Source: Propionibacterium ruminifibrarum
Lineage (GTDB): Bacteria; Actinomycetota; Actinomycetes; Propionibacteriales; Propionibacteriaceae
Length of the DNA stretch: 32,000 bases
Assembly (NCBI RefSeq): GCF_900289195.1
Contig: NZ_OMOH01000004.1
Coordinates: 270,001 to 302,000, forward strand
Reading direction: 5' to 3'
Shown: positions 834 through 18,795 of the stretch, piece by piece
Position numbering within the stretch: the first letter of the stretch is position 1
Layout: every line of letters begins with the position of its first letter
Notes under the pieces: model-generated
Database searches by the model: none
The model's input: only the letters and a program-made list of their open reading frames with translations
Told to the model about the DNA's origin: nothing
Position numbers and translations under genes: made by a program

Positions 834-2363
834 TCAGCCCTGGGGGCGCAGCAGCGGGAACAGGATCGTCTCGCGGATCCCGGTGCCGGTGAACAGCATG
901 ATGAGCCGGTCGACGCCCAGGCCGAGCCCGCCCATGGGCGGGCAGCCCTGTTCGAGCGCGGCGAGGAAGTCCTCGTCGAGCTGCATGGCCTCGGGGTCGC
1001 CGGCGGCCGCGGCGAGCGACTGGGCCGTGAGGATCTCGCGCTGGACGACAGGGTCGACGAGTTCACTGAAGCCGGTGCCGCGCTCCATGCCGCCGATGAT
1101 GAGGTCCCAGGCCTCGATGCAACCGGGCTTGGAGCGGTGGCGGCGTGCCAGCGGCTGGGCGATCTCGGGATAGTCGCAGACGAAGGTCGGCTGCAGCAGG
1201 TCCTTCTCGACGAGCTCGCCGAAGAGTTCGACGACCATCTTCTGAGCCCCCCAGTCCGCGCTGAAGCCCACCTGATGGGCCTCGGCGATCCGGCGCAGCT
1301 CATCGAGGGGGGTCTCGGGGGTGATCTCCTGGCCGAGCCGGTTGGACAGGCCCTCGTGGACGGGCAGCCACGCCCATTCGCCGTCGAGGTCGATGACGCC
1401 GCGCTCGGTCTCGATCCGGTGGGTGCCGAGGGCGTCGGCGACCCGCATGATGACGGCCTTGAGGGTGTCGGCGATCGTGAACTGGTCGCCCCAGCTCTGG
1501 TAGGCCTCGAGCATCGTGAACTCGGGGCTGTGCGAGGAGTCGACGCCCTCGTTGCGGAAGACCCGCCCGATCTCGTAGACCCGGTCGGCGCCGCCGACCA
1601 TGACGCGCTTGAGGTGCAGCTCGAGCGCGATGCGCAGGTACATGTCGATGTCGAAGGCGTTCAGGTGAGTGGCGAACGGGCGGGCTGCGGCGCCGCCGTG
1701 CAGGGTCTGCAGGACCGGGCCCTCGACCTCGAGGTAGCCCTGCTCCTCGAGTTCGGCGCGGATGGCGCGGGTGATGTGCGCGCGGGTACGCAGCATGGTG
1801 CGGGCCTGCTCGCGGACGATGAGGTCGTTGTGGCGCTGGCGTACGCGCGACTCCTCGGACAGCTCCTTGTGGAGGGTCGGCAGCGGGCGCAGGGCCTTGG
1901 AGGCGAGCCGCCACTGCGAGGCCAGCACCGACAGCTCGCCGCGTTTGGACGCGATGACGCGGCCGCGCACCCAGACGAAGTCACCCAGGTCGATGTCGGA
2001 CTTCCACGAGGCGAGGGCCTCCTCGCCGATCTCGGCGCGCGAGAGCATGATCTGCAGGCGTTCGGCGTCGGCGTCCGGTGTGAAGCCGTCCTGGACGGTG
2101 GCGAAGCACAGCTTCCCCGAGTTGCGCAGGAGCACGACCCGGCCGCCGACGGTCACCTCGTCCTGGGTCTCCTGCCCGGGCTCCAGGTCGGGCCAGCCGG
2201 CCCGCACCTGGGCGAGCGTGTGGGTCCGTCGCAGGTCGACCGGGTAGGGCTGCTTGCCCTCGTCGAGGCAGCGCCGACGCTTCTCGGCGCGGACGCGCAT
2301 CTGCTCGGGAAGGTCCTGCTCAGACGCCTGGTTCGTGGGGCTGGTCGGCTGCTGGGAACTCAC
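834..2363 (-). CDS. lysS: Lysine--tRNA ligase (class II)
   Basis: 509-aa ORF with a GTG start. It has an N-terminal OB-fold segment (VTVGGRVVLLRNSGKLCFATVQDG), a class II core (YEIGRVFRNEG) and the C-terminal GGLGLGVDRLIML motif typical of LysRS. Confidence 0.95.
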   Translation of the reverse strand: MSSQQPTSPTNQASEQDLPEQMRVRAEKRRRCLDEGKQPYPVDLRRTHTLAQVRAGWPDLEPGQETQDEVTVGGRVVLLRNSGKLCFATVQDGFTPDADAERLQIMLSRAEIGEEALASWKSDIDLGDFVWVRGRVIASKRGELSVLASQWRLASKALRPLPTLHKELSEESRVRQRHNDLIVREQARTMLRTRAHITRAIRAELEEQGYLEVEGPVLQTLHGGAAARPFATHLNAFDIDMYLRIALELHLKRVMVGGADRVYEIGRVFRNEGVDSSHSPEFTMLEAYQSWGDQFTIADTLKAVIMRVADALGTHRIETERGVIDLDGEWAWLPVHEGLSNRLGQEITPETPLDELRRIAEAHQVGFSADWGAQKMVVELFGELVEKDLLQPTFVCDYPEIAQPLARRHRSKPGCIEAWDLIIGGMERGTGFSELVDPVVQREILTAQSLAAAAGDPEAMQLDEDFLAALEQGCPPMGGLGLGVDRLIMLFTGTGIRETILFPLLRPQG

Positions 2364-2382
2364 CCGGACAGACTACCGTGGG

Positions 2383-2431
2383 GCGCGCGCGGCCCCGCCA
2401 CCGTGACAACCGATGGCGGGGCCGCGCGCGC
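2383..2431 (-). terminator. 17-bp perfect GC hairpin after ugd, at the end of the six-gene operon
   Basis: GCGCGCGCGGCCCCGCC (2383-2399) is the exact reverse complement of 2415-2431, with a 15-nt loop. It starts 8 nt after the ugd stop codon (2439-2441) and sits just upstream of the lysS start (2363). Confidence 0.5.
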
Positions 2432-2438
2432 GTCCGGT

Positions 2439-3899
2439 TCACCGCCTGCCGGGGCCGCCGCACCGCAGCAGCCGGCGACGGCTGCCGACCGACCCGCTGA
2501 GTTGGCGTTCGGGCCGCCTGGCGGTGGCCGGGGTCGCGCGGTGCCGGGCCAGCTCGGGCCGTGACAGCCCGGGGCCGGACGGCGGCCGCCCCAGGCCGAG
2601 GTGGGTCCAGCCGGCCTCACGCCAGCGCCCGGGGTCCAGGGCGTTGCGACCGTCGATGACGACCGGGCGCGCCACCTGGCCAGCGGCCTCGGCCGGGTCC
2701 AAGTCGATGAACTCCTGCCACTCGGTCAGCAGCAGCACCACCTCGGCGCCCTCGAGGGCGGCCAGGGGGTCGCGGCGGGTGTCGAGCCCGGGGTGGAGGC
2801 GCTCGACGACATCCAGCGCCCGGGGATCGCACACCCGCACCAGGGCGCCCCGGTCGGCCAGGCGCAGGGCGACATCGAGGGCCGGTGAGTCGCGCACGTC
2901 GTCGCTGTCGGGTTTGAAGGCGGCGCCGAGCACCGTGACCCGCGCACCGGCCACGTCACCGCCCAGCCAGCGTTCGGCCAGGGCCACGACCCGGTCGCGG
3001 CGGCGCTGGTTGATGGCGTCGACCTGCTTGAGGAAGGTGAGGGCGTCCCCGACGCCCAGCTCCTCGGCGCGGGCGACGAAGGCGCGGATGTCCTTCGGCA
3101 GGCAGCCGCCGCCGAACCCGACGCCGGCGCGCAGGAACTTCCGGCCGATGCGGTCGTCGTAGCCGAGCACGTCGGCCAGGGCCACGACGTCGCCGCCGGT
3201 CGCCTCGCACAGCTCGGCCATGGCGTTGATGAAGCTGATCTTCGTGGCGAGGAAGGAGTTGGCCGCCATCTTGACCAGCTCGGCGGTCGGGTAGTTCGTG
3301 GCGATCCGGGGGATGCCCTCGGCCAGCAGCGGGGCGTAGGCGGCGTCCAGCGCCTCGCGGCCGCGCCGGGCCTGCGCGGGGTCGTCGGGCAGCCCGTAGA
3401 CGATGCGGTCCGGGTGCAGGGTGTCCTCGACGGCGCGGCCCTCGCGCAGGAATTCGGGGTTCCACACCAGGGTGGCCCCGCTCGCGGCGAGGCGCTCGGC
3501 GAGACGTTTCGCGGTACCCACCGGCACCGTCGACTTGCCGGCGACGACGGGCCGGGCGCCGACGGGCACGGCCGCGAGGATCGTGTCGAGGGCCGACTCG
3601 ACGGCGCTCAGGTCTGCCGAGCCGTCGTCGGACTGCGGGGTGCCGACGGTGATGAAGTGCAGTTCCGCGTCGGCCAGCCCGTCGTCGGCCGGCGTGGTCG
3701 TGAACCGCAGCCGGCCGCTGCGCACGGCCCGCTGGAGCAGTTCGCCCAGGCCGGGTTCGAAGAAGGGGGGCCTGCCGTCGGCGAGGGCGTTGACGCGTGC
3801 GGCGTCGACGTCCACGCCCAGGACATCATGACCGAGGGACGCCAGGGCGGCGGCGTGCACGGCTCCGAGATAACCGCAGCCAAGAACGGAGATTCGCAT
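2439..3899 (-). CDS. ugd: UDP-glucose 6-dehydrogenase
   Basis: The true start is ATG at 3899 (aa 334 of the 819-aa track ORF), preceded by GGAAAGGA 8 nt upstream. It has the N-terminal Rossmann motif MRISVLGCGYLGAVHAA and the catalytic-Cys motif GFGGGCLPKD, with family-typical sequence throughout. About 48 extra Arg/Pro-rich residues follow the usual ...GLGR end. Confidence 0.9.
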   Translation of the reverse strand: MRISVLGCGYLGAVHAAALASLGHDVLGVDVDAARVNALADGRPPFFEPGLGELLQRAVRSGRLRFTTTPADDGLADAELHFITVGTPQSDDGSADLSAVESALDTILAAVPVGARPVVAGKSTVPVGTAKRLAERLAASGATLVWNPEFLREGRAVEDTLHPDRIVYGLPDDPAQARRGREALDAAYAPLLAEGIPRIATNYPTAELVKMAANSFLATKISFINAMAELCEATGGDVVALADVLGYDDRIGRKFLRAGVGFGGGCLPKDIRAFVARAEELGVGDALTFLKQVDAINQRRRDRVVALAERWLGGDVAGARVTVLGAAFKPDSDDVRDSPALDVALRLADRGALVRVCDPRALDVVERLHPGLDTRRDPLAALEGAEVVLLLTEWQEFIDLDPAEAAGQVARPVVIDGRNALDPGRWREAGWTHLGLGRPPSGPGLSRPELARHRATPATARRPERQLSGSVGSRRRLLRCGGPGRR

Positions 3900-3949
3900 G
3901 GTGGGGTTCCTTTCCGTGGTGTCGGTCGGTTCTGGTGCCGCCGGGGCGA

Positions 3950-4951
3950 TCACGGCGGCCGCGGACCCGCCAGGCAGGCCTCGACCCACTGTTCGAGCCA
4001 GCGGTCCGCGGCGGGCCGGAAGGAGTGGACGAAGGCCAGCCGCAGGCGGGCGGCCCTCCAGTAGCGGTCGACGTGGGCCGGGCTCGCCCCCAGGCCGCGG
4101 GCCAGGTCGGCCAGGTGCCCGGTCACCCGCCGGTGGCCGTCGGCGCTGAGCGAGCCCGCCAGGCGGCTCAGTTCGGCGTGGGCCAGCAGGTTCCCCACGT
4201 CCAGGGCGGCCTCGCCCCGGGCCGCGGTGTCCAGGTCGAGGACGCCGAGCGCGGCGCCGTCCCACAGCAGCTGGCCGTCGTGCAGGTCGCGGTGCAGCAG
4301 CGCCGGCGGGTCGGTACCGGCCGCCAGGTCGGCGCAGGCCCGTTCGACCGCGCGGCGCAGCGGCCCGAGCGGGCCCACGGCGCCGTGCTCGGCGGCGGCG
4401 GTGTACCAGCGGTCGAGTACCGCGGCCTCGTCGGCGGGAGAGTGCTCGGCGCGGGCCTGGTCCACGTGGCGGGCGATGAGCGGCCAGGCGCCGGCCAGGC
4501 GGGCCCAGCCGTCCAGGCCGTCGTCGCCCAGTTCGTGCAGTGAGCGTCCCGGCAGCAGGGTGAACTCGACGCGCGCCTCGGTGGCGTCCAGCACCCGCGC
4601 GGCCCGCAGCCCGGTGCCGGCGCACAGGCCGGCGATCCGGCTGGAGACGGCGGCCACGCGGGCTGCGCGGCCGGGGCGCAGCAGTTTGACGGCCCGGTCG
4701 GGGCACATGACGACGGCGCGGCGGCCGAACCGGTGCACGACGAGCCGGCCGCGGGTCGGGGCGGACAGTTCGGGCAGGCTGGGGTCGGTGGCGTAGCCGG
4801 TCAGCTCGCTCTCGCCCCAGACGTCGATGCGTCCGGCGCGCAGCAGGCCGTCCGGGTCGCGCTGCTCGAAGGTGATGGCGCCCTGCCGCGCCGGCCATGC
4901 CCGGATGATCCCGTCGGTCGCCCGCAGTGTCGTCAGTGCCGCGCTCGTCAT
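3950..4951 (-). CDS. APH-fold (aminoglycoside/choline-kinase-like) phosphotransferase, substrate unknown
   Basis: 333 aa from the ATG at 4951 (aa 70 of the track ORF), which overlaps the upstream stop as ATGA. The SD GAGGAGG lies 7 nt upstream. The catalytic loop is LLHRDLHDGQLL and the metal-binding segment is VLDLDTAARGE. Confidence 0.75.
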   Translation of the reverse strand: MTSAALTTLRATDGIIRAWPARQGAITFEQRDPDGLLRAGRIDVWGESELTGYATDPSLPELSAPTRGRLVVHRFGRRAVVMCPDRAVKLLRPGRAARVAAVSSRIAGLCAGTGLRAARVLDATEARVEFTLLPGRSLHELGDDGLDGWARLAGAWPLIARHVDQARAEHSPADEAAVLDRWYTAAAEHGAVGPLGPLRRAVERACADLAAGTDPPALLHRDLHDGQLLWDGAALGVLDLDTAARGEAALDVGNLLAHAELSRLAGSLSADGHRRVTGHLADLARGLGASPAHVDRYWRAARLRLAFVHSFRPAADRWLEQWVEACLAGPRPP

Positions 4952-6078
4952 CGGAGCACCTCCTCGAGCCGGTCCAGCCGCTCGCCGACGAGCCGCGCCC
5001 AGCCGGGCCGTGCCTCGCGCAGGGGTTCGACGGCCCGCAGGAGCAGGGCCCCGGCGAGCGCTGTGCGCTGCTGCGGGCCTGACGGGACGTGTCCGCCGGC
5101 GTCCCGGTAGCCCGCCAGGAACGCCTGGACGCCGGGCTCGTCGGCCGTCATGAGCCAAGAACCCAGGTCGGCTGCGGCGGGCGCCAGGTGGGCCCGGTCG
5201 AAGTCGGTCAGCCAGACCCCGCCGTCACCGCTGGTGAGCACCTGGTCGGGCGAGAAATCGCCGTGTACGAGCACCACCGGGCCCGGCAGCCCGGCCAGGG
5301 CGCGGGCGGCGAGGGCGCGCATCCGCTGCGCCAGCGGCCGGTCCAGGGCGTCGAGGACGCCGGCATGGGCCTCGGCCTGCCGCCACGGGTCGACGACGCG
5401 GCGGGACAGTGGTTCGCGCAGCGGGCCGGGCAGCTGGTCGGTGCTGCGGTGGAGGGCCGCGATGAGGGCGCCGGCGGTCCGGCTGCCCCGCGGGTCGGGC
5501 CGGCGCCCCAGGTCGCTGTCACCGGTGTAGCGCAGCACGGCCAGGTGCGGGTCCGCGCCGTCGTCGACCCGTTCGGGGACGGCCACATGGGCGGACACGA
5601 AGTCGTGCACGTCGCGGCCCAGCGGGTCGGCCTCGGCTAGGACCCGCACCACCAGGTCGTCGCGGCGCAGCACCAGGCGTCTCAGCGGGTTGTAGCGCAG
5701 CGCCGTCTCCTCGGGACGGCCGCCGACGAGCCCTCTGCCGCCGGCCTGCCTCAGCGGGCGGCGGAGCCTGGGGTCGGCGAGGATCTCGCCGTGCTGGAGC
5801 ACCAGCCCGCCGGGCAGGGTGCGCCAGCCCACGAGCAGGCCGCGCCGGGCGGCGCTCATGCTGGTCTTGTCGGCCTTCGACAGGCCGCCGGGCCACAGGA
5901 TGCGTGCCCAGCCGCGGGACCGGCCCGTGCCGGGGTCGGCGAGGGAGACGGTCACCGAGGTGTCGGGTTTGATCCGCAGGTGATCGGCCCGCACGTCGCA
6001 GCCGAGCAGTCCGCTGAGCCTGGAGGCGTCCAGCACGGCATCCACGACGTCCAGGGTTCGGGTGCCGTCCACCGTCAC
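4948..6078 (-). CDS. APH-fold phosphotransferase, substrate unknown (divergent from its neighbour)
   Basis: 376 aa. The GTG start at 6078 overlaps the ABC gene stop as GTGA. The catalytic loop is VLVHGDFSPDQVL, followed by the WLTDFDRA (DFD) metal-binding motif. Confidence 0.75.
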   Translation of the reverse strand: MTVDGTRTLDVVDAVLDASRLSGLLGCDVRADHLRIKPDTSVTVSLADPGTGRSRGWARILWPGGLSKADKTSMSAARRGLLVGWRTLPGGLVLQHGEILADPRLRRPLRQAGGRGLVGGRPEETALRYNPLRRLVLRRDDLVVRVLAEADPLGRDVHDFVSAHVAVPERVDDGADPHLAVLRYTGDSDLGRRPDPRGSRTAGALIAALHRSTDQLPGPLREPLSRRVVDPWRQAEAHAGVLDALDRPLAQRMRALAARALAGLPGPVVLVHGDFSPDQVLTSGDGGVWLTDFDRAHLAPAAADLGSWLMTADEPGVQAFLAGYRDAGGHVPSGPQQRTALAGALLLRAVEPLREARPGWARLVGERLDRLEEVLR

Positions 6079-7877
6079 CGCCCCCCGATCCTGATCTCGC
6101 CGCTGTGGTGGCCGCTGGCCTCGACCCAGCCGCGGAAGATCCGGCTGGTCTCCATCAGGTCCTGCGGCTGGCCGTCGAGCATGATGTTCCCGTCCTGCAC
6201 CCAGACGACGCGGGTGGCGCGCAGCGCGACCTCGGCGTCATGGGTGACGGCCAGGGTGGTGCGGCCCACCACGAGGTGACTGATCGCGTCCAGCACCAGG
6301 CGCGCCGAGGCTGGGTCCAGCCCGGTGGTCGCCTCGTCGAGGATCACGACCGGGGCGTCGCGCAGCAGGGCGCGGGCGATGGCCACGCGCTGGCGCTGGC
6401 CGCCGGACAGGGTGCCGCCCCGCTCGCCGACGGTCGTGTCGTACCCGTCGGGCAGCTCCATGATGAAGTCGTGGGCGTAGGCGGCGCGGGCCGCCTGCTC
6501 GACCTCGGCGTCGCTGGCCCCCTGACGGCCCAGCCGGATGTTCTCCCGCACCGTGCCGGCGAACAGGACGGCCTCCTGGTGCAGCAGCGAGATGTTCGCC
6601 CGCAGTTCCTTCAGGTCGAGGTCGCGCAGCCGGTTGCCGTCCAGGGTGACCTCGCCGTACGTCGGGTCCTGGGCGCGCACCAGCAGGGACACGAGGGTGG
6701 ACTTGCCGGCCCCGGAGGGTCCGATGAGTGCCACGACCTCGCCGGGCGCGGCGCTCAGGCTCAGCCCGTGGAGCACCTCGGTGTCCTCGTAGGCGGCGTG
6801 CACGTTCTCGAAGCGCACCATGCCGCGAGCCCGCCCGATCCGCAACGGGCTGGGCGGGTTGACGATGTCGGGTTGCACCGCCATGAGGTCGGCCACGCGT
6901 TCCCCGGAGGCCGTGGCCTGGGCGATCCGGCCCGTGTACTTCGCCATGTCGCGCAGGGGTTTCATCGTCGTGCGCAGGTAGCTGGTGAAGAGCACGAGGT
7001 CGCCCAGGCTCATGGCGCCGTCGAGGGCCCGCAGCGCCCCGCTGACCATGACGATGGCGGTGGCGAGGCCGATGATGACGTCCGTGGTGCGTTCGAGCCG
7101 GGCGGACAGGCGCCGGGAGGCCACGCCCGAGCGCAGGGACGTCTGGTTGGCCGAGCCGAACCGGTCGGAGATGAGTTCCTCCAGGCCGTAGGCCTGCACC
7201 ACCTGGATGGCGGCGAGCGACTCCTGGGCGGTGTTCGCCAGGTGCCCCTCGCCCTTGCGGGTCTTGCGGGCCGCCGCCGTGATCTTCTGCGAGTTGCCCG
7301 CCGAGGTGAGGGCGAACAGGACGATCGCGCCGACCACGACGAGCGACAGCAGGGGGTCGAGCACGACCATGACCCCGAGCATGACCACCAGGGTGATGAC
7401 GTTGGCGACGAGCGGCAGGCCCGCGGTGATCACCACGTCCTGCATCCGGCCCACGTCGCTGACGATGCGCTGGACGGTGTCGGCGCTGCGGTTGCGGGAG
7501 TGGAACTGCAGGGAGAGCCCCTGCACGTGCCGGAAGATCCTGGCGCGCAGCGAGGTGGCCACGCGCGAACCGGCGAGGGCGAAGGCGACGGTGGCCAGGT
7601 AGTTCGTCAGGGCCCGCAGCCCGGTCAGGGCCAGCTGCGCGAAACCCCACCACATGAGCAGCCCGAGCGTGGCGGGGCGGTGCGAGCTGTCGGCGCCGAG
7701 CGCCGCCGAGACGGAGTCGACGACGTACTTCATGGGCCACGGCTCCAGCACCCGGAAGATCACCTCGGCCAGCAGGGCGCACACGCCGCCCGCCAGGAGT
7801 CTCGTGTGGGCGCGCGCGTCGGGGGCCAGCAGGCGCAGGGTGCGCACCAGGGCCTGTTTCCTGATCCGTTCAGCCAT
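6075..7877 (-). CDS. ABC exporter, fused permease + ATPase (type I / MsbA-like half transporter)
   Basis: 600 aa from the ATG at 7877 (aa 237 of the 836-aa track ORF), with GGAGGA 5 nt upstream. The N-terminal half is hydrophobic with six helices. It has Walker A GPSGAGKST, signature LSGGQRQR and Walker B VVILDEAT, all canonical. Confidence 0.9.
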   Translation of the reverse strand: MAERIRKQALVRTLRLLAPDARAHTRLLAGGVCALLAEVIFRVLEPWPMKYVVDSVSAALGADSSHRPATLGLLMWWGFAQLALTGLRALTNYLATVAFALAGSRVATSLRARIFRHVQGLSLQFHSRNRSADTVQRIVSDVGRMQDVVITAGLPLVANVITLVVMLGVMVVLDPLLSLVVVGAIVLFALTSAGNSQKITAAARKTRKGEGHLANTAQESLAAIQVVQAYGLEELISDRFGSANQTSLRSGVASRRLSARLERTTDVIIGLATAIVMVSGALRALDGAMSLGDLVLFTSYLRTTMKPLRDMAKYTGRIAQATASGERVADLMAVQPDIVNPPSPLRIGRARGMVRFENVHAAYEDTEVLHGLSLSAAPGEVVALIGPSGAGKSTLVSLLVRAQDPTYGEVTLDGNRLRDLDLKELRANISLLHQEAVLFAGTVRENIRLGRQGASDAEVEQAARAAYAHDFIMELPDGYDTTVGERGGTLSGGQRQRVAIARALLRDAPVVILDEATTGLDPASARLVLDAISHLVVGRTTLAVTHDAEVALRATRVVWVQDGNIMLDGQPQDLMETSRIFRGWVEASGHHSGEIRIGGR

Positions 7878-9000
7878 GGTCGTCCTCCATTCCGGCGAGC
7901 CGCATGATCCGGTCGACGACGCCCGCCCAGGAGTGACGCTCCTCGGCGCGGCGCCGCCCGGCGCGGCCGAGCTCGTCCCGGCGGTCGGGGTCGGCGGCGA
8001 GGGCGTCGATGGCCCGGGCGAGGGCCGCCGGGTCTGACGGGGGGACGAGAACGCCCAGCCCGTCGAGGATCTCGGGCAGCTGCCCGACCCGGGAGGCCAC
8101 CACGGGCAGGCCCGCCGCGAGGTACTCGTAGACCTTGAGCGGTGAGAAGTACTGGTCGTCCTCGGCACCGGTCCTCGGGTAGGGGGCGGCGCCGATGGCC
8201 GCACCGGCCAGGTGGGAGGGCATGTCCTGGGGGGCGACGGCCCCGCGGAAGTCGGCCCGCAGGCCGAGCCGGGCGGCCAGGCGTTCCAGTTCGGCACGCC
8301 GCGGCCCGTCGCCGATGATCCGCAGCCGCCAGGGCTCGCCGGCCAGGGACGCGGCCTTGAGCAGGTCCTCCACCCCGTGCCAGGGCTTGAGGGTGCCGAC
8401 GAAGGCCACCACGGGAACGCCCGGGGACGGGGGCCTGGGCACGATGCGGCGCACGCTGACGCCGTTGGGCACCGTGGCGGCTCGGGTGGCGCCGGTGCGT
8501 TCGACGACCCACCGGCGTACCGGGTCCGAGACGCAGATCGTCGCCGCGGCGGCCTCCACCTGGGCGCGCAGCGCCGCCAGGGCACCGGCCTCGTCGACCA
8601 GGCCGCGGTAGGTGCGCTGCTCGTCGATGAGGGGGGCGTTGACCTCGAGGACGCCGGGGACCCCGGCGCTCTCGTGCAGTCCGGCGAGCACGGTGGAGAA
8701 CAGCGAGTAGCGTTCGTAGACCATGTCGGCGCCCTCGGACAGGAGACGGCGGGTGATCTCGGCCACGGCCTCCTGCTGGGCGCGTTCCCGCCCGGCCGGG
8801 TCCTGGGCGGCCACCGGCAGCTCGGTCACGGGCAGGCCGGCGAGGTCGTCGGGCACCTCGTGGCCGCGGCGCGTCGTGTAGACCCGCACCTCGTGGCCGC
8901 GCGCCAGCAGCTCGCGCACCACCTCCTGCACGTGCACGGAGGCGCCCTTGGTGCCGAACACGGGGATGCCGGGGTCGACGGTGACGTAGGCGATGCGCAT
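7870..9000 (-). CDS. GT-B glycosyltransferase, family 4-like
   Basis: 376 aa, beginning MRIAYVTVDPGIPVFGTKGASVHV. The C-terminal nucleotide-sugar-binding segment is FSPLKVYEYLAAGLPVVASRVGQLPEIL. The ATG at 9000 shares 1 nt with the upstream TGA (TGATG), and GGAGGAGG lies upstream. Confidence 0.85.
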   Translation of the reverse strand: MRIAYVTVDPGIPVFGTKGASVHVQEVVRELLARGHEVRVYTTRRGHEVPDDLAGLPVTELPVAAQDPAGRERAQQEAVAEITRRLLSEGADMVYERYSLFSTVLAGLHESAGVPGVLEVNAPLIDEQRTYRGLVDEAGALAALRAQVEAAAATICVSDPVRRWVVERTGATRAATVPNGVSVRRIVPRPPSPGVPVVAFVGTLKPWHGVEDLLKAASLAGEPWRLRIIGDGPRRAELERLAARLGLRADFRGAVAPQDMPSHLAGAAIGAAPYPRTGAEDDQYFSPLKVYEYLAAGLPVVASRVGQLPEILDGLGVLVPPSDPAALARAIDALAADPDRRDELGRAGRRRAEERHSWAGVVDRIMRLAGMEDDHG

Positions 9001-11396
9001 CAGCGCTCACCTCCTCCCGCCTCACCCGCTTCCCAGGTGGACAGGGCGGCCGCCTGTTTGCGGCTGTCGAACTTCTCCTCGATGAGGGCCCTGGCGTTGC
9101 GGGCCATGCCGGTCAGGTCGTAGCCGCCGGCGGCCACGCGCGTCAGGGCCGCGGCCAGCGCGTCGACGTCGCCGGGGTCGAGCAGGATGCCGGTGTCCTG
9201 GTCCCGGACGACCTCGGGCAGGCCCGAGACGGAGGTCGCAATGACGGGCGTGCCGCTGGCCATGGCCTCCAGCACCACCGTGGGCAGGCCGTCGATGTTG
9301 CCGTCGGCGGCCTGGATGCACGGGGCGGCGAAGACGTGCGCGCCGGACAGCAGCCGCTTGACCTCCTCCTGGGTGAGTGGTCCGAGCAGCCGCACGTGGC
9401 CGGTGAGACCGCGTCGGCGGATCCGGGCGGCCAGCTCGCCGGCCAGCTCCCCGTCGCCGGCGATGGACGCGGTGACGTCGAGCCCGGCCGAGCGGGCCTG
9501 GGCGACGGCGTCGATGAGGTCGGCGAAACCCTTCTTGGGCACGAGCCGGCCCAGGGCCGCCACCCGCAGCGGTGCGCTGACCCGCGGCGGGTCGTGGTAG
9601 GGGAAGCGCGCCAGTTCCAGGGCGTTGTACTGCAGGCTGACCCGTGCTCCGGTGCCGTCCAGGACCTGCCGGAGGTAGGCCTCGTTGAACTCGCTGATGG
9701 CCACGACGCGTTCGGCGTCCCCGCAGATGCGGCGCAGCCAGAACAGGTCGACCGAGTCGTGGAAGATGTCCTTGGCGTGCGTGGTGACCGTGTAGGGCAC
9801 GCCCGTCAGGCGCGAGGCCAGCCAGGTCATGCGGCCGGCCAGGGACGCGAAGTGGGCGTGCAGGTGGGTGATGCCGTCCTCGAGCACGGACCGGGCGAGC
9901 GCCACGCCCTGAGCGACCTCGTCGCCGGGCAGTTCGGCGAGTTCGGGCAGCAGGCCGGCGAGGTTCTCGCGCAGCCGCGGGTGGCTGACCGCCCCGGCCA
10001 GCTGCTCCCACATGTCCGTGGCCTTGAGGGGGCGCGGCACCCAGGTCACCCGCGCCCCGACCCGGGCGATCTCGGGGTGGAAGCGCTGGTCGGTCGTCGG
10101 GCGCAGCGCGTAGATGCTCAGGTCGTCGCCGAGGGCCTCCCGGGCGAGCATCTCGGTGACGACGAAGGTCTCGGAGAAGCGGGGGTAGACCTTGAGCACG
10201 TAGCCGATCCGGGGCCGGGCCGGGGACGCCTCGAGGGCCGCCGCGTCGGCGAGGAGTTCGGCCGCGTAGCGGGCGGCCGTCGTCAGCCCGTCCAGGGCGA
10301 GGGCGGAGCGGCTGACATGACGGCCGACCGCCCCGGCCGCCCAGGAGCCCAGGGCCGCCGGGCTCATCTGCTCGGCCCGCATGACGTCGAGGGCGCCCAC
10401 GTCGGCCAGCGACCGGGCGCGGATGAGCTGTTCGCGTCGTGGCTCCTCGCGGGGCACGATGAGCGCGGGCGTGTCGGTGGCGAGGATCTCGCACGTCGTG
10501 TTGTAGCCGCCCATGGCGATGACGGCGTCGGCGTCGGCGATCTGGTTGCTCAGGCCGGGCCAGGAGCGGTGGACGTGGGTGCGCGGACCGGCCAGCGCCT
10601 GGACGGCCGTGGCGTCGGCGAGCTGCGGCCCGGTGACGATGACGTGCTCGTACCCGTCCGGCACGTCCATCGCCGCCGCCGCCCGCAGCAGGTCGTGCCC
10701 GTCCGAACCGCCCCCGGCGGTGGTGAGGATGAACGGGGCCCGGCGCGGCTCGCCCGCCCCGTCGAGTTCGCGCCGACCGTTCGCCAGGTACCCGGTGAAC
10801 CGGACCTTGTCGGCGAGGGCCAGGGGCACCTCTCCGCTGGCGATGGGGTCGTGGACGTCCTGGTCGCCGTAGACCCACACCTCGTCGACGAGGCGGCGCA
10901 GCTCCGAGAGGTCGCCCAGGGCGCGCCACTCGGCCGCGGCGGCGGCCGGCTCGTCGAGCACCTCGCGCAGCCCGAGGACCACGCGTGCGCAGGGGCGGCG
11001 GGCGCGCAGCCGGCGCAGTGGTCGGCGCAGTTCCCGCCAGACCCCGTAGATGTGGCGGTCGATGACGACCAGGTCGGGGGCGAAGGACAGCATCGCCGAC
11101 TCGATGAGGACCGAGCGCAGGTCGATGAGCCGGCTCGTGGGGCCGGCCAGGTTGCGGGGCTCGTAGCCGTTGCTGCCCTTGGCCACCCCCGGGATCGTCA
11201 GCCAGTCGAATCCTTGGGGGAGCAGGACGTCGTCGCCCATCGGCAGCCCCGAAACGAGCAGTCCCGAGACCGGACGGCCGGTCCGCTCGGGGATGGTGCG
11301 GGCCAGGTGGTGGGCGAGCGCCAGGTTGCGGCGCACGTGGCCCAGCCCCTGTGAGTCATGGCTGTACAGGAGTACTCGAATGGTGGTGTCGTCCAC
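9000..11396 (-). CDS. Two-module glycosyltransferase: N-terminal GT28/MurG-like GT-B module fused to a C-terminal GT4-like module
   Basis: 798 aa with a GTG start at 11396. Module 1 (about aa 1-390, nt 10212-11396) has RVLLYSHDSQGLGHVRRNLALAHHL and AMGGYNTTCEILATDTPALIVPREEPRREQLIRA. Module 2 (about aa 396-798, nt 9000-10211) has IGYVLKVYPRFSETFVVTE and DGLPTVVLEAMASGTPVIATSVSGLPEVV. Confidence 0.8.
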   Translation of the reverse strand: MDDTTIRVLLYSHDSQGLGHVRRNLALAHHLARTIPERTGRPVSGLLVSGLPMGDDVLLPQGFDWLTIPGVAKGSNGYEPRNLAGPTSRLIDLRSVLIESAMLSFAPDLVVIDRHIYGVWRELRRPLRRLRARRPCARVVLGLREVLDEPAAAAAEWRALGDLSELRRLVDEVWVYGDQDVHDPIASGEVPLALADKVRFTGYLANGRRELDGAGEPRRAPFILTTAGGGSDGHDLLRAAAAMDVPDGYEHVIVTGPQLADATAVQALAGPRTHVHRSWPGLSNQIADADAVIAMGGYNTTCEILATDTPALIVPREEPRREQLIRARSLADVGALDVMRAEQMSPAALGSWAAGAVGRHVSRSALALDGLTTAARYAAELLADAAALEASPARPRIGYVLKVYPRFSETFVVTEMLAREALGDDLSIYALRPTTDQRFHPEIARVGARVTWVPRPLKATDMWEQLAGAVSHPRLRENLAGLLPELAELPGDEVAQGVALARSVLEDGITHLHAHFASLAGRMTWLASRLTGVPYTVTTHAKDIFHDSVDLFWLRRICGDAERVVAISEFNEAYLRQVLDGTGARVSLQYNALELARFPYHDPPRVSAPLRVAALGRLVPKKGFADLIDAVAQARSAGLDVTASIAGDGELAGELAARIRRRGLTGHVRLLGPLTQEEVKRLLSGAHVFAAPCIQAADGNIDGLPTVVLEAMASGTPVIATSVSGLPEVVRDQDTGILLDPGDVDALAAALTRVAAGGYDLTGMARNARALIEEKFDSRKQAAALSTWEAGEAGGGER

Positions 11397-11751
11397 GGGA
11401 GGTTCCGATCAGGTCCGGCAACCGACACCTCGGCAGTGGGATTCTTCCCTGCGGCGGGGCCACGGGACTGCGCCGGGTGGAGTGCGCGTTGTTCATGGCT
11501 TGGGTCACTGCTGGGCCAGGGGCCGCGTTCCTCGGCGCGGCCCGGCACGGGGACAGCCGGCTTGGGTGCCACATGATGCCCGATCTCGCTGCGGGCTGCT
11601 GCCTTGGTTCCTCCCATGGTAGCCGCAACTCCCCAAATGCGGCCCCTCTGGGCTCTGATCGGCTCGCGGCACGGCCCCGGCGAGGCCGCCCGACCGACCC
11701 GAAGCAAGACCCGGCAACCAGCGGGCCGCGAAGACGCGGGCCCCGGAACAC

Positions 11752-11795
11752 GGATGCGGGTCACCGGTGCTCGCCCACACCGGTGACCCGCATCC
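11752..11795. other. 18-bp perfect hairpin in the long intergenic region
   Basis: GGATGCGGGTCACCGGTG (11752-11769) is the exact reverse complement of 11778-11795, with an 8-nt loop. It could act as a distal terminator for the methyltransferase gene or as a structure in the operon leader. There is no U-tract. Confidence 0.4.
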
Positions 11796-11843
11796 TTCCT
11801 CAAGCGATTCGCCAAGGCTACCCTAATTCAAAGCAAGCGGAAT

Positions 11844-11867
11844 GGGAAGCCCGGATTTCTTCTTCCC
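11844..11867 (-). terminator. Small hairpin followed by a T-rich run on the minus strand, about 100 nt after the methyltransferase stop
   Basis: GGGAAG (11844-11849) pairs with CTTCCC (11862-11867) around a 12-nt loop. The minus-strand sequence after it is ATTCCGCTTGCTTTGAATT. Confidence 0.3.
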
Positions 11868-11965
11868 GAACCCGTCGCCGACAGCACCGCCCCCGGCCGG
11901 CCCGATCCCCCCGGCGTTCTCCACCCCAGCTCTTCGGGGTGCCGGGCCCCGCGCCCATGAGTCGT

Positions 11966-12841
11966 TCAGGGCTTGCGCAGGACGATGCCGACCGCCGTCA
12001 GATCGTCCTTGTGCGCCTTGAAGCCCTCGCGCATGGCGTGCACCCGGCGTCTGGCCTCGGGGCGCCTGCGCAGGTTGTTGAGGAACCTGACCGAGCCGAT
12101 GATCCCCTCATCGGCGATGATGCGGCCCGGGTCGAGGAGGCGCATCGGGGCGCACCCGACCCAGACGACCTCGAAGCCGGCCCCCTCGAAGAGCGCCCGC
12201 CATGCCGCGATCTTGAGCGGGCGGGCCCCGACCTTGATCCGCGCGGAGAGGTCACGGCCGACCGGGCCGCGGGCGTTCTCGTCGGGGTCGTCGGCCTGGT
12301 CGGTGAGGGCGAGTTCGTGCACGGCGTAGCGACCCCCTGTGTCGAGCACGCGCCATGCCTCGGCCAGGATCGTGCGGCGCTGCGCCGGTGGACACATCGT
12401 GAGCATGGCCTCGCCGACGATGAGATCGGCGCTGGCGTCGGGCAGCGTGGTCTCGGCCGCGTCGGCGGTGACGACCCGGGCGCGGGGGTTGCCGTCGAGG
12501 ACGGCGTCGAGCTGGGCGCGCCCCTCGGGGTTGGGGTCGACGCCCGTGTACGAGACCGGGTCGACCGCCAGGAGCATCCCGGCGGTCAGCCCCACGCCGG
12601 GGCCGAACTCGACGATGCGGTCGTGGCTGCTCGGGTGCGCCCGGTCGAGCAGCCGCCTGGTGAGCCCCCGACCTCCGGGGCGCAGTACTCGCTTGCCGAG
12701 TGAGGCGAGCAGCCAGTGGCCCTGCAGCCGCGCGTCCTGGGCCGGGCCGGCGTCACGTCCCGCCTCGCCGGCATCTGCCGCCTCACCGGCCGGCCCGGCT
12801 CCGGGCGCCCCTTGGCGGGCGAGGCGGCCGGCCTCTGCCAT
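11966..12841 (-). CDS. Class I SAM-dependent methyltransferase
   Basis: SAM-binding motif I is IVEFGPGVGLTAGML, followed by DASADLIVGEAML and LDTGGRY (post-I/II/III pattern). I take the start at ATG 12841 (aa 45 of the track ORF); GTG 12901 is an alternative. Confidence 0.8.
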   Translation of the reverse strand: MAEAGRLARQGAPGAGPAGEAADAGEAGRDAGPAQDARLQGHWLLASLGKRVLRPGGRGLTRRLLDRAHPSSHDRIVEFGPGVGLTAGMLLAVDPVSYTGVDPNPEGRAQLDAVLDGNPRARVVTADAAETTLPDASADLIVGEAMLTMCPPAQRRTILAEAWRVLDTGGRYAVHELALTDQADDPDENARGPVGRDLSARIKVGARPLKIAAWRALFEGAGFEVVWVGCAPMRLLDPGRIIADEGIIGSVRFLNNLRRRPEARRRVHAMREGFKAHKDDLTAVGIVLRKP

Positions 12842-12924
12842 GGCACCGGGGTCGACCTGGCTGCACAGGCACTGGCCCTGCTCCGGCTCGGCCTCGACGT
12901 CGACAGCCCCGGCACGCTGCCCGT

Positions 12925-13278
12925 TCACCGGCCCGCCGCGGCGACATCGACGAGGACGAGCGTCATGCGGCAATCGGTCTCGGCCTTGAGGGAGTGCAGC
13001 ACGTCGGGCGCCATGTAGAGGCAGTCACCGGCGTGCAGCAGGTGGGGCTCGCCGCTCAGCGTGAACGTCATCTCGCCCTCGAGGAGCTGGACGACCACGC
13101 CCTTCGGGGCGGCGTGCTCACTGAGCATCTGACCGGCGCCGAAGGTGAACTGGGTGACCTGGAGCAGGTCGTTCTTCACCAGGATGCGCGATGTGGTGCT
13201 CTCGGGGACGATGGGGAGCTCGTCAGCCACGCCGGTGCTGACGACGTTCTCGGTGTACGTGGTCTGGTCATCGCTCAT
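12925..13278 (-). CDS. Cupin domain protein
   Basis: 117 aa from the ATG at 13278, with the SD AAGGAGA 5 nt upstream. A cupin-type beta-barrel signature is present: FGAGQMLSEHAAPKGVVVQLLEGEMTF ... LHAGDCLYMAPDVLHSL. Confidence 0.8.
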   Translation of the reverse strand: MSDDQTTYTENVVSTGVADELPIVPESTTSRILVKNDLLQVTQFTFGAGQMLSEHAAPKGVVVQLLEGEMTFTLSGEPHLLHAGDCLYMAPDVLHSLKAETDCRMTLVLVDVAAAGR

Positions 13279-13472
13279 GGTCGATCTCCTTCGTACTCGG
13301 GGTGCGCCGGAGCGGATCCCGCGGCCGCACAGTCCTCCGTGAACTAAGGTAATCCTCATTGAGTAATTAGCACGGAAGAAATCCCACATATTGGAGACCG
13401 GCTGGCTCGGCGGCGCATCCGGCACTCGATGCAACGAGTTGCCGCCGCTGCAACCAAGTGCCGTGCTTTGAA

Positions 13473-13492
13473 ATGAGTGAGCGCTCACTCAT
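13473..13492. promoter_or_regulatory. Perfect 20-bp palindrome, candidate TetR operator
   Basis: ATGAGTGAGCGCTCACTCAT equals its own reverse complement. It lies 30 nt upstream of the TetR ATG (13522), inside the 244-bp divergent region shared with the cupin operon. Confidence 0.55.
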
Positions 13493-13521
13493 ACCCTCGT
13501 CGTGTGAGCCGAGCAGCACCC

Positions 13522-14109
13522 ATGTCGCCTGAGGAGCGGCGAAGGACGATCATCGAAGCGGCCCGGCCGCTTCTCGTCGCCAATGGGGGCCGGTTCACGA
13601 CGAAGCAGGTGGCCGAGGCGGCCGGGATCGCCGAGGGCACCATTTTTCGTGTCTTCCCCACCAAGCAGGCCCTCTACGACGCGGTGATCGCCGACGTGCT
13701 CGACCCCACGCCCACGGTCGAGGCGTTCCGGACAATGCCCGAGCATCACAGCCTCGAGGAGCGCATCACCGCCGTCCTGACCCTGCTGTACTCGGACATG
13801 GACACGATCGAGGAGGTGTTCATGGCGGTCCACGCCATGCCCTCCGACGACCTGTCGCCCCGCAAGCCCCCGATGAAGAACTGCGACGGCGCCCCGACCC
13901 GCTCCGACGACCTGCGCGGGGCCATGGCCGAGGCCATCGCCCCCTGGCGGGACGAGTTGTCGGTCTCGCTGGAGGAGGCCGCGGCCTGGCTCCGTTCCGT
14001 CGCAATGGCGACCTCACACCCCTTCCTCAAGCGGGGCGCGGACTTTCCCCCCGAACTCGCCGCCCGCCTGATCACCCACGGTCTCACGAAAGGATCCACA
14101 CGGCCTTGA
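13522..14109 (+). CDS. TetR/AcrR family transcriptional regulator
   Basis: The N-terminal HTH is RRRTIIEAARPLLVANGGRFTTKQVAEAAGIAEGTIFRVFPTKQALY. I take the start at ATG 13522; the track start at 13477 lies inside the palindrome. Confidence 0.85.
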   Translation: MSPEERRRTIIEAARPLLVANGGRFTTKQVAEAAGIAEGTIFRVFPTKQALYDAVIADVLDPTPTVEAFRTMPEHHSLEERITAVLTLLYSDMDTIEEVFMAVHAMPSDDLSPRKPPMKNCDGAPTRSDDLRGAMAEAIAPWRDELSVSLEEAAAWLRSVAMATSHPFLKRGADFPPELAARLITHGLTKGSTRP

Positions 14110-14122
14110 AAGGGGATTGCGC

Positions 14123-17847: not shown

Positions 17848-17902
17848 GGCAGAAGGCATCCTCCGTGGGACCGCCTGGGGCAGTGGGCGGATCGCAGTGA
17901 GA

Positions 17903-17945
17903 GGGGAACCCCGGTACCGAACACCCTCCGGTACCGGGGTTCCCC
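17903..17945 (+). terminator. 17-bp perfect hairpin after the ABC pair
   Basis: GGGGAACCCCGGTACCG (17903-17919) pairs with 17929-17945 around a 9-nt loop, 56 nt after the stop at 17847. The downstream T content is weak (CTTGTCCC). Confidence 0.55.
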
Positions 17946-18005
17946 CTTGTCCCAGGCCGATTCATCACCCATGGCGCTCAGCCCTGTTCTCCATGGGCGA
18001 ATGTT

Positions 18006-18040
18006 ACTTTCTTGTATAAAGGAACTTTCTATGAGAAAGT
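18006..18040 (+). promoter_or_regulatory. AT-rich island with a repeated ACTTTCT motif, upstream of the oxidoreductase gene
   Basis: ACTTTCT occurs at 18006-18012 and 18024-18030, and its inverted copy AGAAAGT at 18034-18040 (7-bp inverted repeat with a 3-nt spacer). The surrounding ~60 nt are far more AT-rich than the rest of the window. The SD AAAGGAG is at 18061-18067. Confidence 0.3.
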
Positions 18041-18074
18041 ATTCATTGTTCCGATCCCCGAAAGGAGAAATCCC

Positions 18075-18692
18075 ATGACCTCAGTTTCGATACTCGGTGC
18101 AGGCAGTATTGGCTCGGCCGTCGCCACCGTGTTCGCCAAGGCCGGCGCCGACGTGCAGGTGCTCGCCCGTGACACCGCCAAGGGCGCAGACATTGAGGGC
18201 GTCACCGTCTCCCCGCTGGGAGAGCCCATCACCGGTGACGTCGTCGTCCTGGCCCTCCCCTACCCGGCCGTGGCCGAGGTCATCGACCAGTACGGCGCGA
18301 GCGCCTTCGACGGCCGGATCGTCGTCGACCCCACCAATCCGGTGAGCATCCCCGAGCTCACCGCGCTGCTCCCCGCCGGCACGTCGGCTGCCGCCGAGAT
18401 CGCCGCGAAGCTGCCCGGCGCCAGGGTCGTGAAGGCCTTCAACACGAACTTCGCGGCCACGATCGCGGCCGGCACGGCGTCCAACGGCGCGACGACAGTC
18501 GTCCTCGCCGCGGGCGATGACACCGAGGCCAAGGAGGCCCTGCGTTCACTCGTCGAGGGCGGCGGTCTGGCCTTCGCCGACGGCGGCGGCCTCGCCAATG
18601 CCGTGCGCCTCGAGGCGGTGGGCGCCGTCGGGATGCACCTCGCCCTGGCCGGCCGGATCGGCTGGACGGGCGGGTTGCTCATCACCGAGTGA
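18075..18692 (+). CDS. NAD(P)-binding oxidoreductase, NADPH-dependent F420 reductase-like family
   Basis: 205 aa from the ATG at 18075. The N-terminal dinucleotide fold is SILGAGSIGSAVATVFAKAGADVQVLARD, followed by VVVLALPYPAV and VVKAFNT, typical of the F420_oxidored / ProC-like family. Confidence 0.75.
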   Translation: MTSVSILGAGSIGSAVATVFAKAGADVQVLARDTAKGADIEGVTVSPLGEPITGDVVVLALPYPAVAEVIDQYGASAFDGRIVVDPTNPVSIPELTALLPAGTSAAAEIAAKLPGARVVKAFNTNFAATIAAGTASNGATTVVLAAGDDTEAKEALRSLVEGGGLAFADGGGLANAVRLEAVGAVGMHLALAGRIGWTGGLLITE

Positions 18693-18713
18693 CTGAACCG
18701 ATCGCTGCGCACA

Positions 18714-18751
18714 ACGAATGCCGCCGGAGCCACGGTTCCGGCGGCATTCGT
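18714..18751 (+). terminator. 15-bp perfect hairpin between the oxidoreductase and HxlR genes
   Basis: ACGAATGCCGCCGGA (18714-18728) pairs with TCCGGCGGCATTCGT (18737-18751) around an 8-nt loop, 22 nt after the stop at 18692. Confidence 0.5.
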
Positions 18752-18795
18752 GCGTGCCCGTGTTCTGTACAGTGGTCCCAGATGTTCTGGGGGTG

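Follow-up and report, generated by a model that had tools for sequence, protein, structure and literature searches.

The stretch of DNA considered here is a 32,000-nucleotide segment of the Propionibacterium ruminifibrarum genome (contig NZ_OMOH01000004.1 of assembly GCF_900289195.1, positions 270,001 to 302,000), referred to below as the window. Near its left end, six minus-strand genes (2439-11396) make up a compact cassette encoding three glycosyltransferase (GT) modules of the GT-B fold, an MsbA-like, homodimer-type ATP-binding cassette (ABC) exporter, two kinases of the APH fold (KinA and KinB) and Ugd, a member of the UDP-glucose 6-dehydrogenase family. This gene content was first proposed in an initial annotation made from the sequence, and it is supported by Pfam and NCBIfam, which also bear out the accompanying claim that the operon includes no priming transferase, Wzx/Wzy, polymerase or nucleotidyltransferase. 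The cassette recurs with the same gene order in dozens of species from several phyla, and its product is most likely a phosphorylated cell-envelope glycolipid or glycan. The genes and their products are as follows:

9000-11396, minus strand: GTfus, 798 amino acids (aa), with a GTG start and a TGA stop, identified from the listing of open reading frames (ORFs) and by direct reading of the strand
10227-11396, minus strand: N-terminal half of GTfus (aa 1-390), an inverting GT-B enzyme of the GT1/GT28 type, comparable to MurG, monogalactosyldiacylglycerol (MGDG) synthase and OleD
9000-10208, minus strand: C-terminal half of GTfus (aa ~397-798), a GT4, retaining GT-B glycosyltransferase
7870-9000, minus strand: second GT4 glycosyltransferase, 376 aa, assigned by Pfam; best relatives in the Protein Data Bank (PDB) are PimB', sucrose-phosphate synthase, GlgM and MshA
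6075-7877, minus strand: half-size ABC exporter (transmembrane domain followed by nucleotide-binding domain) of the MsbA/ABCB/Sav1866 type, 600 aa; Pfam ABC_membrane 126 bits, ABC_tran 121 bits
4948-6078, minus strand: KinA, a small-molecule kinase of the APH/choline-kinase fold, 376 aa; Pfam APH (PF01636) 64.9 bits, cutoff 23.2
3950-4951, minus strand: KinB, a second and very divergent APH-fold kinase, 333 aa; Pfam APH (PF01636) 35.3 bits, cutoff 23.2
2439-3899, minus strand: Ugd, UDP-glucose 6-dehydrogenase family, 486 aa; three UDPG_MGDP_dh Pfam domains (N-terminal, central and C-terminal)

All domains assigned in the six products score above the Pfam gathering thresholds. Third-position GC is 0.92-0.97 in the chosen frames of the six ORFs, a value expected for real genes in a genome of 72-75% GC, which supports these frames. 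The gene boundaries proposed earlier agree with the ORF listing and the reading of the strand.

The six genes are a tightly packed, translationally coupled operon. GTfus and the second GT4 gene overlap by 1 nt at 9000, in the sequence TGATG, preceded by GGGAGGAGG. The GT4 and ABC genes share 8 nt at 7870-7877 (ATGGCTGA), with GGAGGA ahead of the junction. The ABC and KinA genes overlap by 4 nt (GTGA, 6075-6078), preceded by GGGGGG, and the ATG of KinB lies over the stop codon of KinA in a 4-nt ATGA at 4948-4951, preceded by GAGGAGG. These Shine-Dalgarno purine runs (GGGAGGAGG, GGAGGA, GGGGGG and GAGGAGG) are located within the 3' ends of the upstream genes. KinB and ugd are separated by a 50-nt spacer with GGAAAGGA 8 nt 5' of the ugd ATG. 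The overlaps, the spacer and the position of the purine runs had all been described before, and each can be read directly in the sequence. As a six-gene unit, the operon stands in this genome, but the ancestral unit has seven genes, since the first protein is split in almost all relatives.

The distribution of the cassette was established from 80 genomic loci recovered with a KinA profile, against which all proteins of the window were compared by tblastn. Genes for a GT1/28-like enzyme, two GT4 enzymes, the ABC protein, KinA and KinB occur in identical order and orientation in 72 of the 80 loci, and the remaining eight are mostly truncated contigs. Judged from these alignments, the arrangement is far beyond chance. 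The kinases therefore adjoin the GT and ABC genes in several phyla and not just in this genome. Ugd adjoins the cassette in 53 of the 72 loci. The closest genome is that of P. australiense, with 82-93% identity. Hosts are found in the Propionibacteriaceae, the Actinomycetaceae (Actinomyces) and the Microbacteriaceae (Microbacterium), in the genera Rothia, Corynebacterium, Arthrobacter/Pseudarthrobacter, Brevibacterium and Nesterenkonia, in one Streptomyces and in a metagenome-assembled genome of the Acidimicrobiaceae. Outside the phylum, there is one locus each in the Caldilineaceae (Chloroflexota, L068), the Synechococcaceae (a cyanobacterium, L080) and the alphaproteobacterium Aestuariibius (L079). 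Two paralogous copies of the whole cassette, located on different contigs, are present in several Arthrobacter genomes (L054/L063, L057/L058, L060/L071 and L069/L078). A tblastn search of KinA against 72,556 plasmids gave no match and hence no evidence of plasmid carriage. The GC content of the cassette (2439-11396) is 74.7%, versus 68.5% in 12000-32000 and 70.5% in the adjoining lysS gene, which is compatible with acquisition from a donor of higher GC.

When all flanking ORFs of the 80 loci were clustered, the only families besides Ugd that recurred across taxa belonged to a two-component system (TCS). No priming transferase, Wzx/Wzy, Wzm/Wzt, polymerase, nucleotidyltransferase or core enzyme of natural-product synthesis recurs in these flanks. 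Within the window itself, the components of a Wzx/Wzy, Wzm/Wzt or synthase-type polysaccharide locus are absent from the six genes and from the other ORFs scanned. The initial annotation knew of no characterised pathway with this composition, and none was found in the full-text literature, the NCBIfam equivalogs, PADLOC or the PDB. Literature searches with varied terms yielded no description of the cassette; the one useful paper, on the HexRK/HexSDF system (PMC10128005), supplied an analogy.

The N-terminal half of GTfus is the candidate first, lipid-directed transferase. It matches Pfam Glyco_tran_28_C at 29.9 bits (cutoff 22); of the two halves that define GT28, the C-terminal PF04101 is matched and the N-terminal PF03033 is not. 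A phmmer search of the PDB finds MurG alone, with E = 1.3e-3. The AlphaFold2 model of this half has a predicted local distance difference test (pLDDT) value of 89.9, and Foldseek places the GT1 enzymes OleI/OleD and CalG on a par with MurG (TM-score 0.52-0.63), that is, it returns fold-level neighbours and no specific family. The motifs YSHDxxGLGHxRRN, GGGxDG and GYNTxxE are at least 95% conserved among 74 orthologues. The family comprises more than 2,600 proteins and is mostly encoded by a stand-alone gene of ~395 aa in the relatives. The fusion of a GT1/28 and a GT4 module is found here, in P. australiense and in P. acidifaciens only, the two being separate genes almost everywhere else, and by this comparison the fusion is specific to this lineage.

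Both remaining modules belong to GT4, with a Glyco_transf_4 N-domain and a Glycos_transf_1 C-domain above threshold, and all of their PDB relatives are GT4 enzymes. In the C-terminal half of GTfus, Glyco_trans_1_4 scores 117 bits, Glycos_transf_1 110 bits and Glyco_transf_4 33 bits, and among solved structures it is closest to PimB', sucrose-phosphate synthase, MshA and PimA. It aligns along the entire NCBIfam model for EpsE, under the cutoff (171 versus 400). No NCBIfam equivalog cutoff is reached by any of the GTs, the ABC protein or the kinases.

Both kinases retain the β3 lysine, the HxD...Q catalytic loop and the DxD metal site. In KinA, K37, H272-G-D274-x-S-P-D-Q279 and D292-x-D294 are invariant or at least 95% conserved among 71 orthologues, while in KinB, K89, H220-x-D222-L-H-x-x-Q227 and D239-x-D241 are at least 95% conserved among 75. 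With their catalytic residues kept in this way, both kinases look active. They resemble each other weakly, around the catalytic loop. The AlphaFold2 model of KinA (pLDDT 94.2) has a predicted bilobal, protein-kinase-like fold. Foldseek gave 317 PDB matches to this model at E<=1e-3, and the 50 listed are kinases of the APH, Mph and ChoK types. Among these listed matches, the neighbours are generic for the APH fold (TM-score 0.4-0.5) and include macrolide phosphotransferases, choline kinases, APH(2''), corramycin phosphotransferase and a glucosamine kinase. Sequence searches of the PDB with KinA and KinB returned nothing informative, an Mph match having E = 0.29.

More specific assignments were sought for both kinases. 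Neither belongs to the antibiotic-resistance kinases Mph, APH(2''), APH(3') or APH(9) by any NCBIfam antimicrobial resistance (AMR) model, and identities in the Foldseek alignments of KinA are 11-21%. Neither has an NCBIfam or Pfam match to the anomeric kinases Mak/Pep2, NahK and AmgK, and the flanks of the 72 loci contain no recurrent partner enzyme that uses sugar-1-phosphates.

At 50% identity and E<=1e-30, the KinA family falls into 579 clusters. In the alphaproteobacterium Aestuariibius (L079, 9137-11290), KinA and KinB are fused into one protein of 717 aa. A second such protein, P0412, is encoded on a 3.7-kb contig (L081, 858-3140). It has 760 aa, with a KinA-like N-terminal half and a C-terminal half that is 41% identical to full-length KinB. 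At least 8 of the top 150 representatives of the KinA family are 670-781 aa long, and fusions are found in several high-GC lineages. As Rosetta-stone fusions, these point to a joint function, and KinA and KinB probably act together in the other genomes as well.

The ABC protein is, by its architecture, assigned as a type IV (ABCB-like) half-transporter and nothing more specific. Its best PDB sequence matches are ABCB1/ABCB4, Sav1866, TM287/288 and MsbA. NCBIfam scores are 374 bits for MsbA_rel and 363 bits for MsbA, both under the equivalog cutoffs. The MsbA equivalogs are missed by a wide interval, TIGR02203 scoring 363 against 602 bits and PRK11176 284 against 867. The models for NdvA and ChvA, exporters of soluble glucans, score 318 and 235 bits. 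By analogy with these transporters, the protein is a candidate flippase or exporter of the cassette's product. PADLOC models for anti-phage systems gave generic ABC-ATPase matches to the transporter and none to the GTs, the kinases or Ugd, and no defence system was matched.

Ugd is the sole product of the cassette above an NCBIfam subfamily cutoff. Its membership in the NDP-sugar dehydrogenases (TIGR03026) is established at 387.7 bits against a cutoff of 189.8, and it falls below the equivalog cutoffs of TuaD and AglM; its specificity for UDP-glucose is inferred. Residues 444-486 (2439-2570) form a 43-residue Arg/Pro-rich tail that is shared by no orthologue, the alignments stopping at aa 438-443. 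Since this stretch, together with the 75-nt gap that follows, is the only room for a lysS promoter, the tail may be a fortuitous open frame over regulatory DNA.

In many of the relatives, the cassette is accompanied by its own regulators. A sensor kinase with HAMP, HisKA and HATPase domains and an OmpR-type response regulator adjoin 35 of the 72 cassettes, downstream in the Actinomycetaceae and upstream in Microbacterium, Brevibacterium, Streptomyces and some Arthrobacter. The Aestuariibius locus (L079) has a divergently transcribed sensor/regulator pair that falls under the counting threshold. The linked sensor has two transmembrane segments flanking an extracytoplasmic loop of ~140 aa and resembles kinases of the CopS/CztS, MtrB, WalK and BaeS types, without reaching any cutoff. 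Many loci also contain an operator-like element, TGAGA-N-TCTCAT-N5-(C/T)TCATC-N-TCTT, some 100 nt ahead of the cassette's first gene. In it, an inverted repeat is followed by a direct repeat with 11-bp phasing, as is typical of OmpR-family sites. Examples of the two are:

L015, 12297-14460: TCS pair
L062, 2249-4407: TCS pair
L075, 1544-3624: TCS pair
L079, 1308-3646, minus strand: TCS pair
L062, ~4330-4370: operator-like element, at about -70 to -150 as in the next line
L014, L017, L006, L048, L074, L013, L019 and L036: operator-like element

A matrix built for the element exceeds 12 bits in 48 of 71 upstream regions, the maximum in 380 coding controls being 3.6. The putative element cross-validates between bacterial orders: when the matrix is trained on the Actinomycetaceae alone, 16 of 46 other loci still score above all 494 controls, in every case at -71 to -146. 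In the 32-kb window, tblastn finds no match to the TCS genes, and no operator site rises above background at any position, including 11397-11965. Both the TCS and the box are likewise absent in P. australiense and P. acidifaciens, which suggests that regulation has been rewired in this lineage.

The boundaries of the operon are marked by the following features:

2383-2431, minus strand: GC-rich hairpin in the gap that separates ugd from lysS, which may be a U-less terminator or a processing/attenuation element
11397-11965, minus strand: upstream non-coding region of 569 bp, presumed promoter/leader
11752-11795: perfect inverted repeat of 18 bp (z = -5.2), 170 nt past the stop of the methyltransferase gene 11966-12973

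The downstream hairpin had been described as a perfect one of 17 bp that bounds the unit. The hairpin itself is real, with arms of 21 nt (2383-2403/2411-2431) that are 95% complementary and a folding energy of -62.5 kcal/mol in an 82-nt context (z = -5.6 versus shuffled sequences). Its role as a boundary, however, is uncertain. The hairpin lacks a U-tract, and its end is only 20 nt away from the GTG start (2363) of lysS (834-2363), a gene on the same strand; the 3' boundary of the transcript is therefore uncertain. Transcription from the cassette may continue into lysS, or the hairpin may influence the expression of lysS instead of simply acting as a terminator. A consensus terminator scan of 2200-12100 misses this hairpin because a T-run is lacking, and gives a single match on the wrong strand, within chance expectation.

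On the upstream side, the ORF-free region of some 570 bp is real and measures 569 bp. An Rfam scan of the whole window at gathering thresholds found no RNA family, and with it no riboswitch or leader in this region; a scan of 2200-12100 for the sigma-70 consensus found no promoter match. The hairpin at 11752-11795 is the likely terminator of the methyltransferase gene, insulating the cassette from upstream transcription. The methyltransferase gene lies upstream of the cassette and is unrelated to it.

We read the six genes as a single pathway in which a small anionic glycoconjugate is assembled, modified and exported at the cytoplasmic membrane, namely a lipid-anchored, GlcA (glucuronic acid)-containing trisaccharide that is doubly phosphorylated and flipped outward; the probability of this reading is put at roughly 45%. 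The GT1/28-like enzyme would glycosylate a universal membrane lipid directly. A diacylglycerol-type lipid is the most likely acceptor, and a polyprenyl phosphate-linked primer made elsewhere is possible. Direct glycosylation of such a lipid would explain why the cassette has no priming phosphoglycosyltransferase. The acceptor would be universal because the cassette includes no priming or core enzyme and because its hosts range from actinobacteria to cyanobacteria and alphaproteobacteria. The two PimA/PimB'-like GT4 enzymes would extend the glycolipid to a trisaccharide, with at least one GlcA supplied through Ugd. KinA and KinB would then each phosphorylate a sugar hydroxyl, as do WaaP and WaaY on the inner core of lipopolysaccharide (LPS), and a dimer of the ABC half-transporter would flip the charged product to the outer leaflet, as do MsbA and PglK. 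The resulting surface glycolipid, or wall-linked glycan, would be strongly anionic and would alter the charge and permeability of the envelope. In about half of the relatives, the histidine kinase, sensing an extracytoplasmic signal, and its OmpR-type regulator would act on the TCTCAT-repeat operator, while expression would be wired differently here.

What the comparison shows are the domain identities, the intact active sites, the translational coupling, the conserved gene order, the fusions, and a sensor and operator linked to the cassette; from these we infer the acceptor, the order of the sugars, the sites of phosphorylation and the flipping. The solved relatives of both GT4 modules include the lipid-acceptor enzymes PimB' and PimA, the N-terminal half of GTfus is related to MurG, and the exporter is related to the lipid and drug floppases ABCB1/ABCB4 and MsbA. 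GT28 enzymes (MurG and MGDG synthases) and GT4 enzymes (PimA/PimB', WaaG and the GlcA-diacylglycerol synthases) classically use membrane lipids as acceptors on the cytoplasmic side, and half-transporters of the MsbA and PglK types flip lipid-linked products.

Several observations weigh against this reading. No feature of the sequences points to a lipid acceptor. Neither kinase belongs to the Kdo/WaaP family (WaaP, WaaY, KdkA), as Pfam at E<=0.01 gives APH alone for both. Ugd is not adjacent to the cassette in 19 of the 72 loci, and GlcA is perhaps not obligatory. The ABC protein falls below every NCBIfam equivalog cutoff, which makes "flippase" an analogy only. KinA has macrolide phosphotransferases and choline kinases as its closest structural neighbours, and the N-terminal half of GTfus has GT1 enzymes of macrolide and natural-product glycosylation, tied with MurG; such a pattern would be equally expected from a drug-modifying system. 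Of the three hypotheses in the initial annotation, the phosphorylated and exported lipid-linked glycan is nevertheless favoured over sugar-1-phosphate synthesis and over the inactivation of an exogenous compound, although all three are still conjectural.

The strongest of the rivals, though an unlikely one, is that the cassette serves the inducible inactivation and efflux of a xenobiotic or antibiotic. The GT1-like enzyme would transfer a glucuronosyl or glycosyl residue, using UDP-GlcA, the kinases would inactivate a hydroxyl-bearing toxin, and the ABCB-type pump would expel the conjugate, by analogy with Mph plus Mgt/OleD plus efflux or with the eukaryotic UGT/UGDH/ABC detoxification of phases II and III. 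Macrolide 2'-phosphotransferases and corramycin phosphotransferase are indeed the top Foldseek neighbours of KinA, as OleI/OleD are of the N-terminal half of GTfus, and the exporter is closest to the multidrug transporters ABCB1 and Sav1866. However, the structural matches are weak (TM-score 0.4-0.6, 11-22% identity) and come from families that dominate the PDB for these folds, and no NCBIfam AMR model matches either kinase. The patchy distribution across phyla and the dedicated two-component sensor of many relatives are also reminiscent of inducible resistance operons, but the cassette was not found among the plasmids searched. The two extra GT4 enzymes, which are of the PimA/PimB'/MshA type, show strict conservation, and the inactivation of one drug would hardly call for five modifying activities that always occur together.

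It is improbable, too, that the product is soluble, that is, an oligosaccharide or glycoside that carries phosphate and is assembled on a small-molecule acceptor in the manner of MshA, BshA or sucrose-phosphate synthase and secreted by the ABC protein as an osmoprotectant, signal, metal chelator or matrix component. Small-acceptor GT4 enzymes (MshA, BshA and sucrose-phosphate synthase) score about equally to PimA and PimB', similar ABC exporters move soluble glucans, as the NdvA and ChvA matches (318 and 235 bits) recall, and the cassette encodes no lipid-related enzyme. Nor, on the other hand, does it have a gene for the synthesis of a dedicated small acceptor, and MurG/GT28-type enzymes and MsbA/ABCB-type exporters typically handle membrane-embedded substrates.

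Least probable of the three is a role for KinA and KinB as anomeric sugar-1-kinases, comparable to Mak, NahK and AmgK, that feed sugar-1-phosphates into the pathway through a nucleotidyltransferase encoded elsewhere or through phosphorylase-like GT4 enzymes, leaving the product unphosphorylated. Anomeric kinases of the APH fold do exist, a glucosamine kinase is among the Foldseek matches of KinA, and GlgM, which is tied to maltose-1-phosphate metabolism, is among the PDB matches of the GT4 modules. Yet no nucleotidyltransferase or GlgE-like enzyme co-occurs in the 72 loci, NCBIfam and Pfam give no match for Mak, NahK or AmgK, and Ugd implies a classical supply of UDP-sugars. The kinase fusions also fit two consecutive decorations of one substrate better than they fit independent salvage kinases. 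Carotenoid glycosylation, teichuronic acid, a moenomycin-like phosphoglycolipid antibiotic and phosphatidylinositol mannoside (PIM) synthesis were rejected, as their defining genes are absent from all loci.

The phosphorylated envelope glycolipid can be taken further, to a horizontally mobile, "LPS-core-like" lipid pathway shared by monoderm Actinomycetota and a few diderms. Its product would be a GlcA-containing triglycosyl lipid carrying two phosphate monoesters from new paired glycan kinases, with a dedicated ABC exporter and, in most lineages, its own envelope-stress TCS acting through the TCTCAT operator. This fuller picture is possible rather than probable. Its parts are all from known superfamilies, and the scheme of assembling, phosphorylating and flipping a glycan has a precedent in LPS. 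If true, the bacterial surface glycolipids would gain a new class, and the APH family its first glycan kinases.

A phosphorylated surface glycolipid or wall glycan would mean that the envelopes of Actinomyces, Schaalia, Rothia, Propionibacterium/Arachnia, some Corynebacterium and soil Micrococcales contain a component not recognised so far, with possible effects on surface charge, cation binding, susceptibility to antimicrobial peptides and antibiotics, and host recognition. The phosphorylation of sugars by protein-kinase-like enzymes, for which WaaP/WaaY, WbdD and the eukaryotic POMK and Fam20B are the main known cases, would thereby be extended beyond Gram-negative LPS. The cassette is compact (~9 kb), self-contained and often equipped with a linked regulator and a recognisable operator, which makes it directly testable.

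Elsewhere in the window, a TetR-family regulator (13477-14109) is followed by overlapping genes for two ABC half-transporters (14117-15859 and 15856-17847), and this region (13477-17847) looks like a typical heterodimeric multidrug-type exporter, unrelated to the cassette. A GH31 glycosidase is encoded at 20892-23252. Two paralogous inosine-uridine nucleoside hydrolase genes (28042-28989 and 30543-31721) flank a 454-aa ORF (28986-30350) with no Pfam match.

Among known systems, the tua operon of Bacillus subtilis shares with the cassette an Ugd (TuaD), GT4 enzymes (TuaC and TuaH) and two-component control, and there are weak NCBIfam matches to TuaC, TuaH and TuaD. These matches, however, are far under the equivalog cutoffs, and the cassette has no counterpart of the TuaA priming enzyme, the TuaB Wzx flippase or the TuaE polymerase, while the tua operon itself has no kinases or ABC exporter. 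The macrolide gene sets (Mph, Mgt/OleD/OleI and OleB/OleC) likewise combine an APH-fold kinase, a GT1-type GT-B enzyme and an ABC protein, and they supply the top structural neighbours. In this case, the TM-scores are 0.4-0.6, there is nothing to match the two extra GT4 enzymes and Ugd, and the cassette, unlike these sets, has a five-enzyme content that is fixed across phyla.

WbdD of E. coli O9a is a kinase of protein-kinase-like fold that phosphorylates a lipid-linked polymannan made by GT4 enzymes before its export by an ABC transporter. The combination of a kinase, GT4 enzymes and ABC-dependent export of a lipid-linked glycan is thus the same as proposed for the cassette, but the O9a system uses Wzm/Wzt (type V), a polymerising GT, undecaprenyl diphosphate primed by WecA and a methyltransferase domain, none of which is found in the cassette. 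In the PIM pathway of the Corynebacteriales, PimA and PimB' are the best solved relatives of both GT4 modules; they are GT4 enzymes working at the cytoplasmic face, where they add sugars to a membrane lipid. Sequence similarity to them is low (E about 1e-15) and limited to the C-terminal domain, the cassette encodes no phosphatidylinositol synthase or acyltransferase, and PIM synthesis itself has no dedicated kinases or ABC exporter gene.

In regulation, the TCS-linked relatives are closest to HexRK-HexSDF of Clostridioides difficile, a TCS-controlled operon in which an MGDG-synthase-like GT and a flippase produce a novel membrane glycolipid and antibiotic susceptibility is altered (PMC10128005). 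The window itself has no TCS. HexSDF further differs in having a deacetylase, an MprF-like flippase and an unphosphorylated product, where the cassette has kinases, GT4 enzymes, an ABC exporter and Ugd.

The closest system in logic and stoichiometry is the LPS inner core of Enterobacteria, with WaaC/WaaF/WaaG, WaaP plus WaaY, and MsbA. Homology between the two is at the superfamily level at most. The cassette has no GT9 heptosyltransferases and no genes for lipid A or Kdo (3-deoxy-D-manno-oct-2-ulosonic acid), its kinases belong to APH rather than Kdo/WaaP, and its hosts are mostly monoderm Actinomycetota. In the LPS core, as proposed here, a short glycan is built on a lipid at the cytoplasmic face, and WaaG is itself a GT4 enzyme. 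Like the LPS inner core, the cassette combines three GT-B glycosyltransferases, two kinases of protein-kinase-like fold and an MsbA-type half-transporter, together with, in the TCS-linked relatives, probable two-component tuning.

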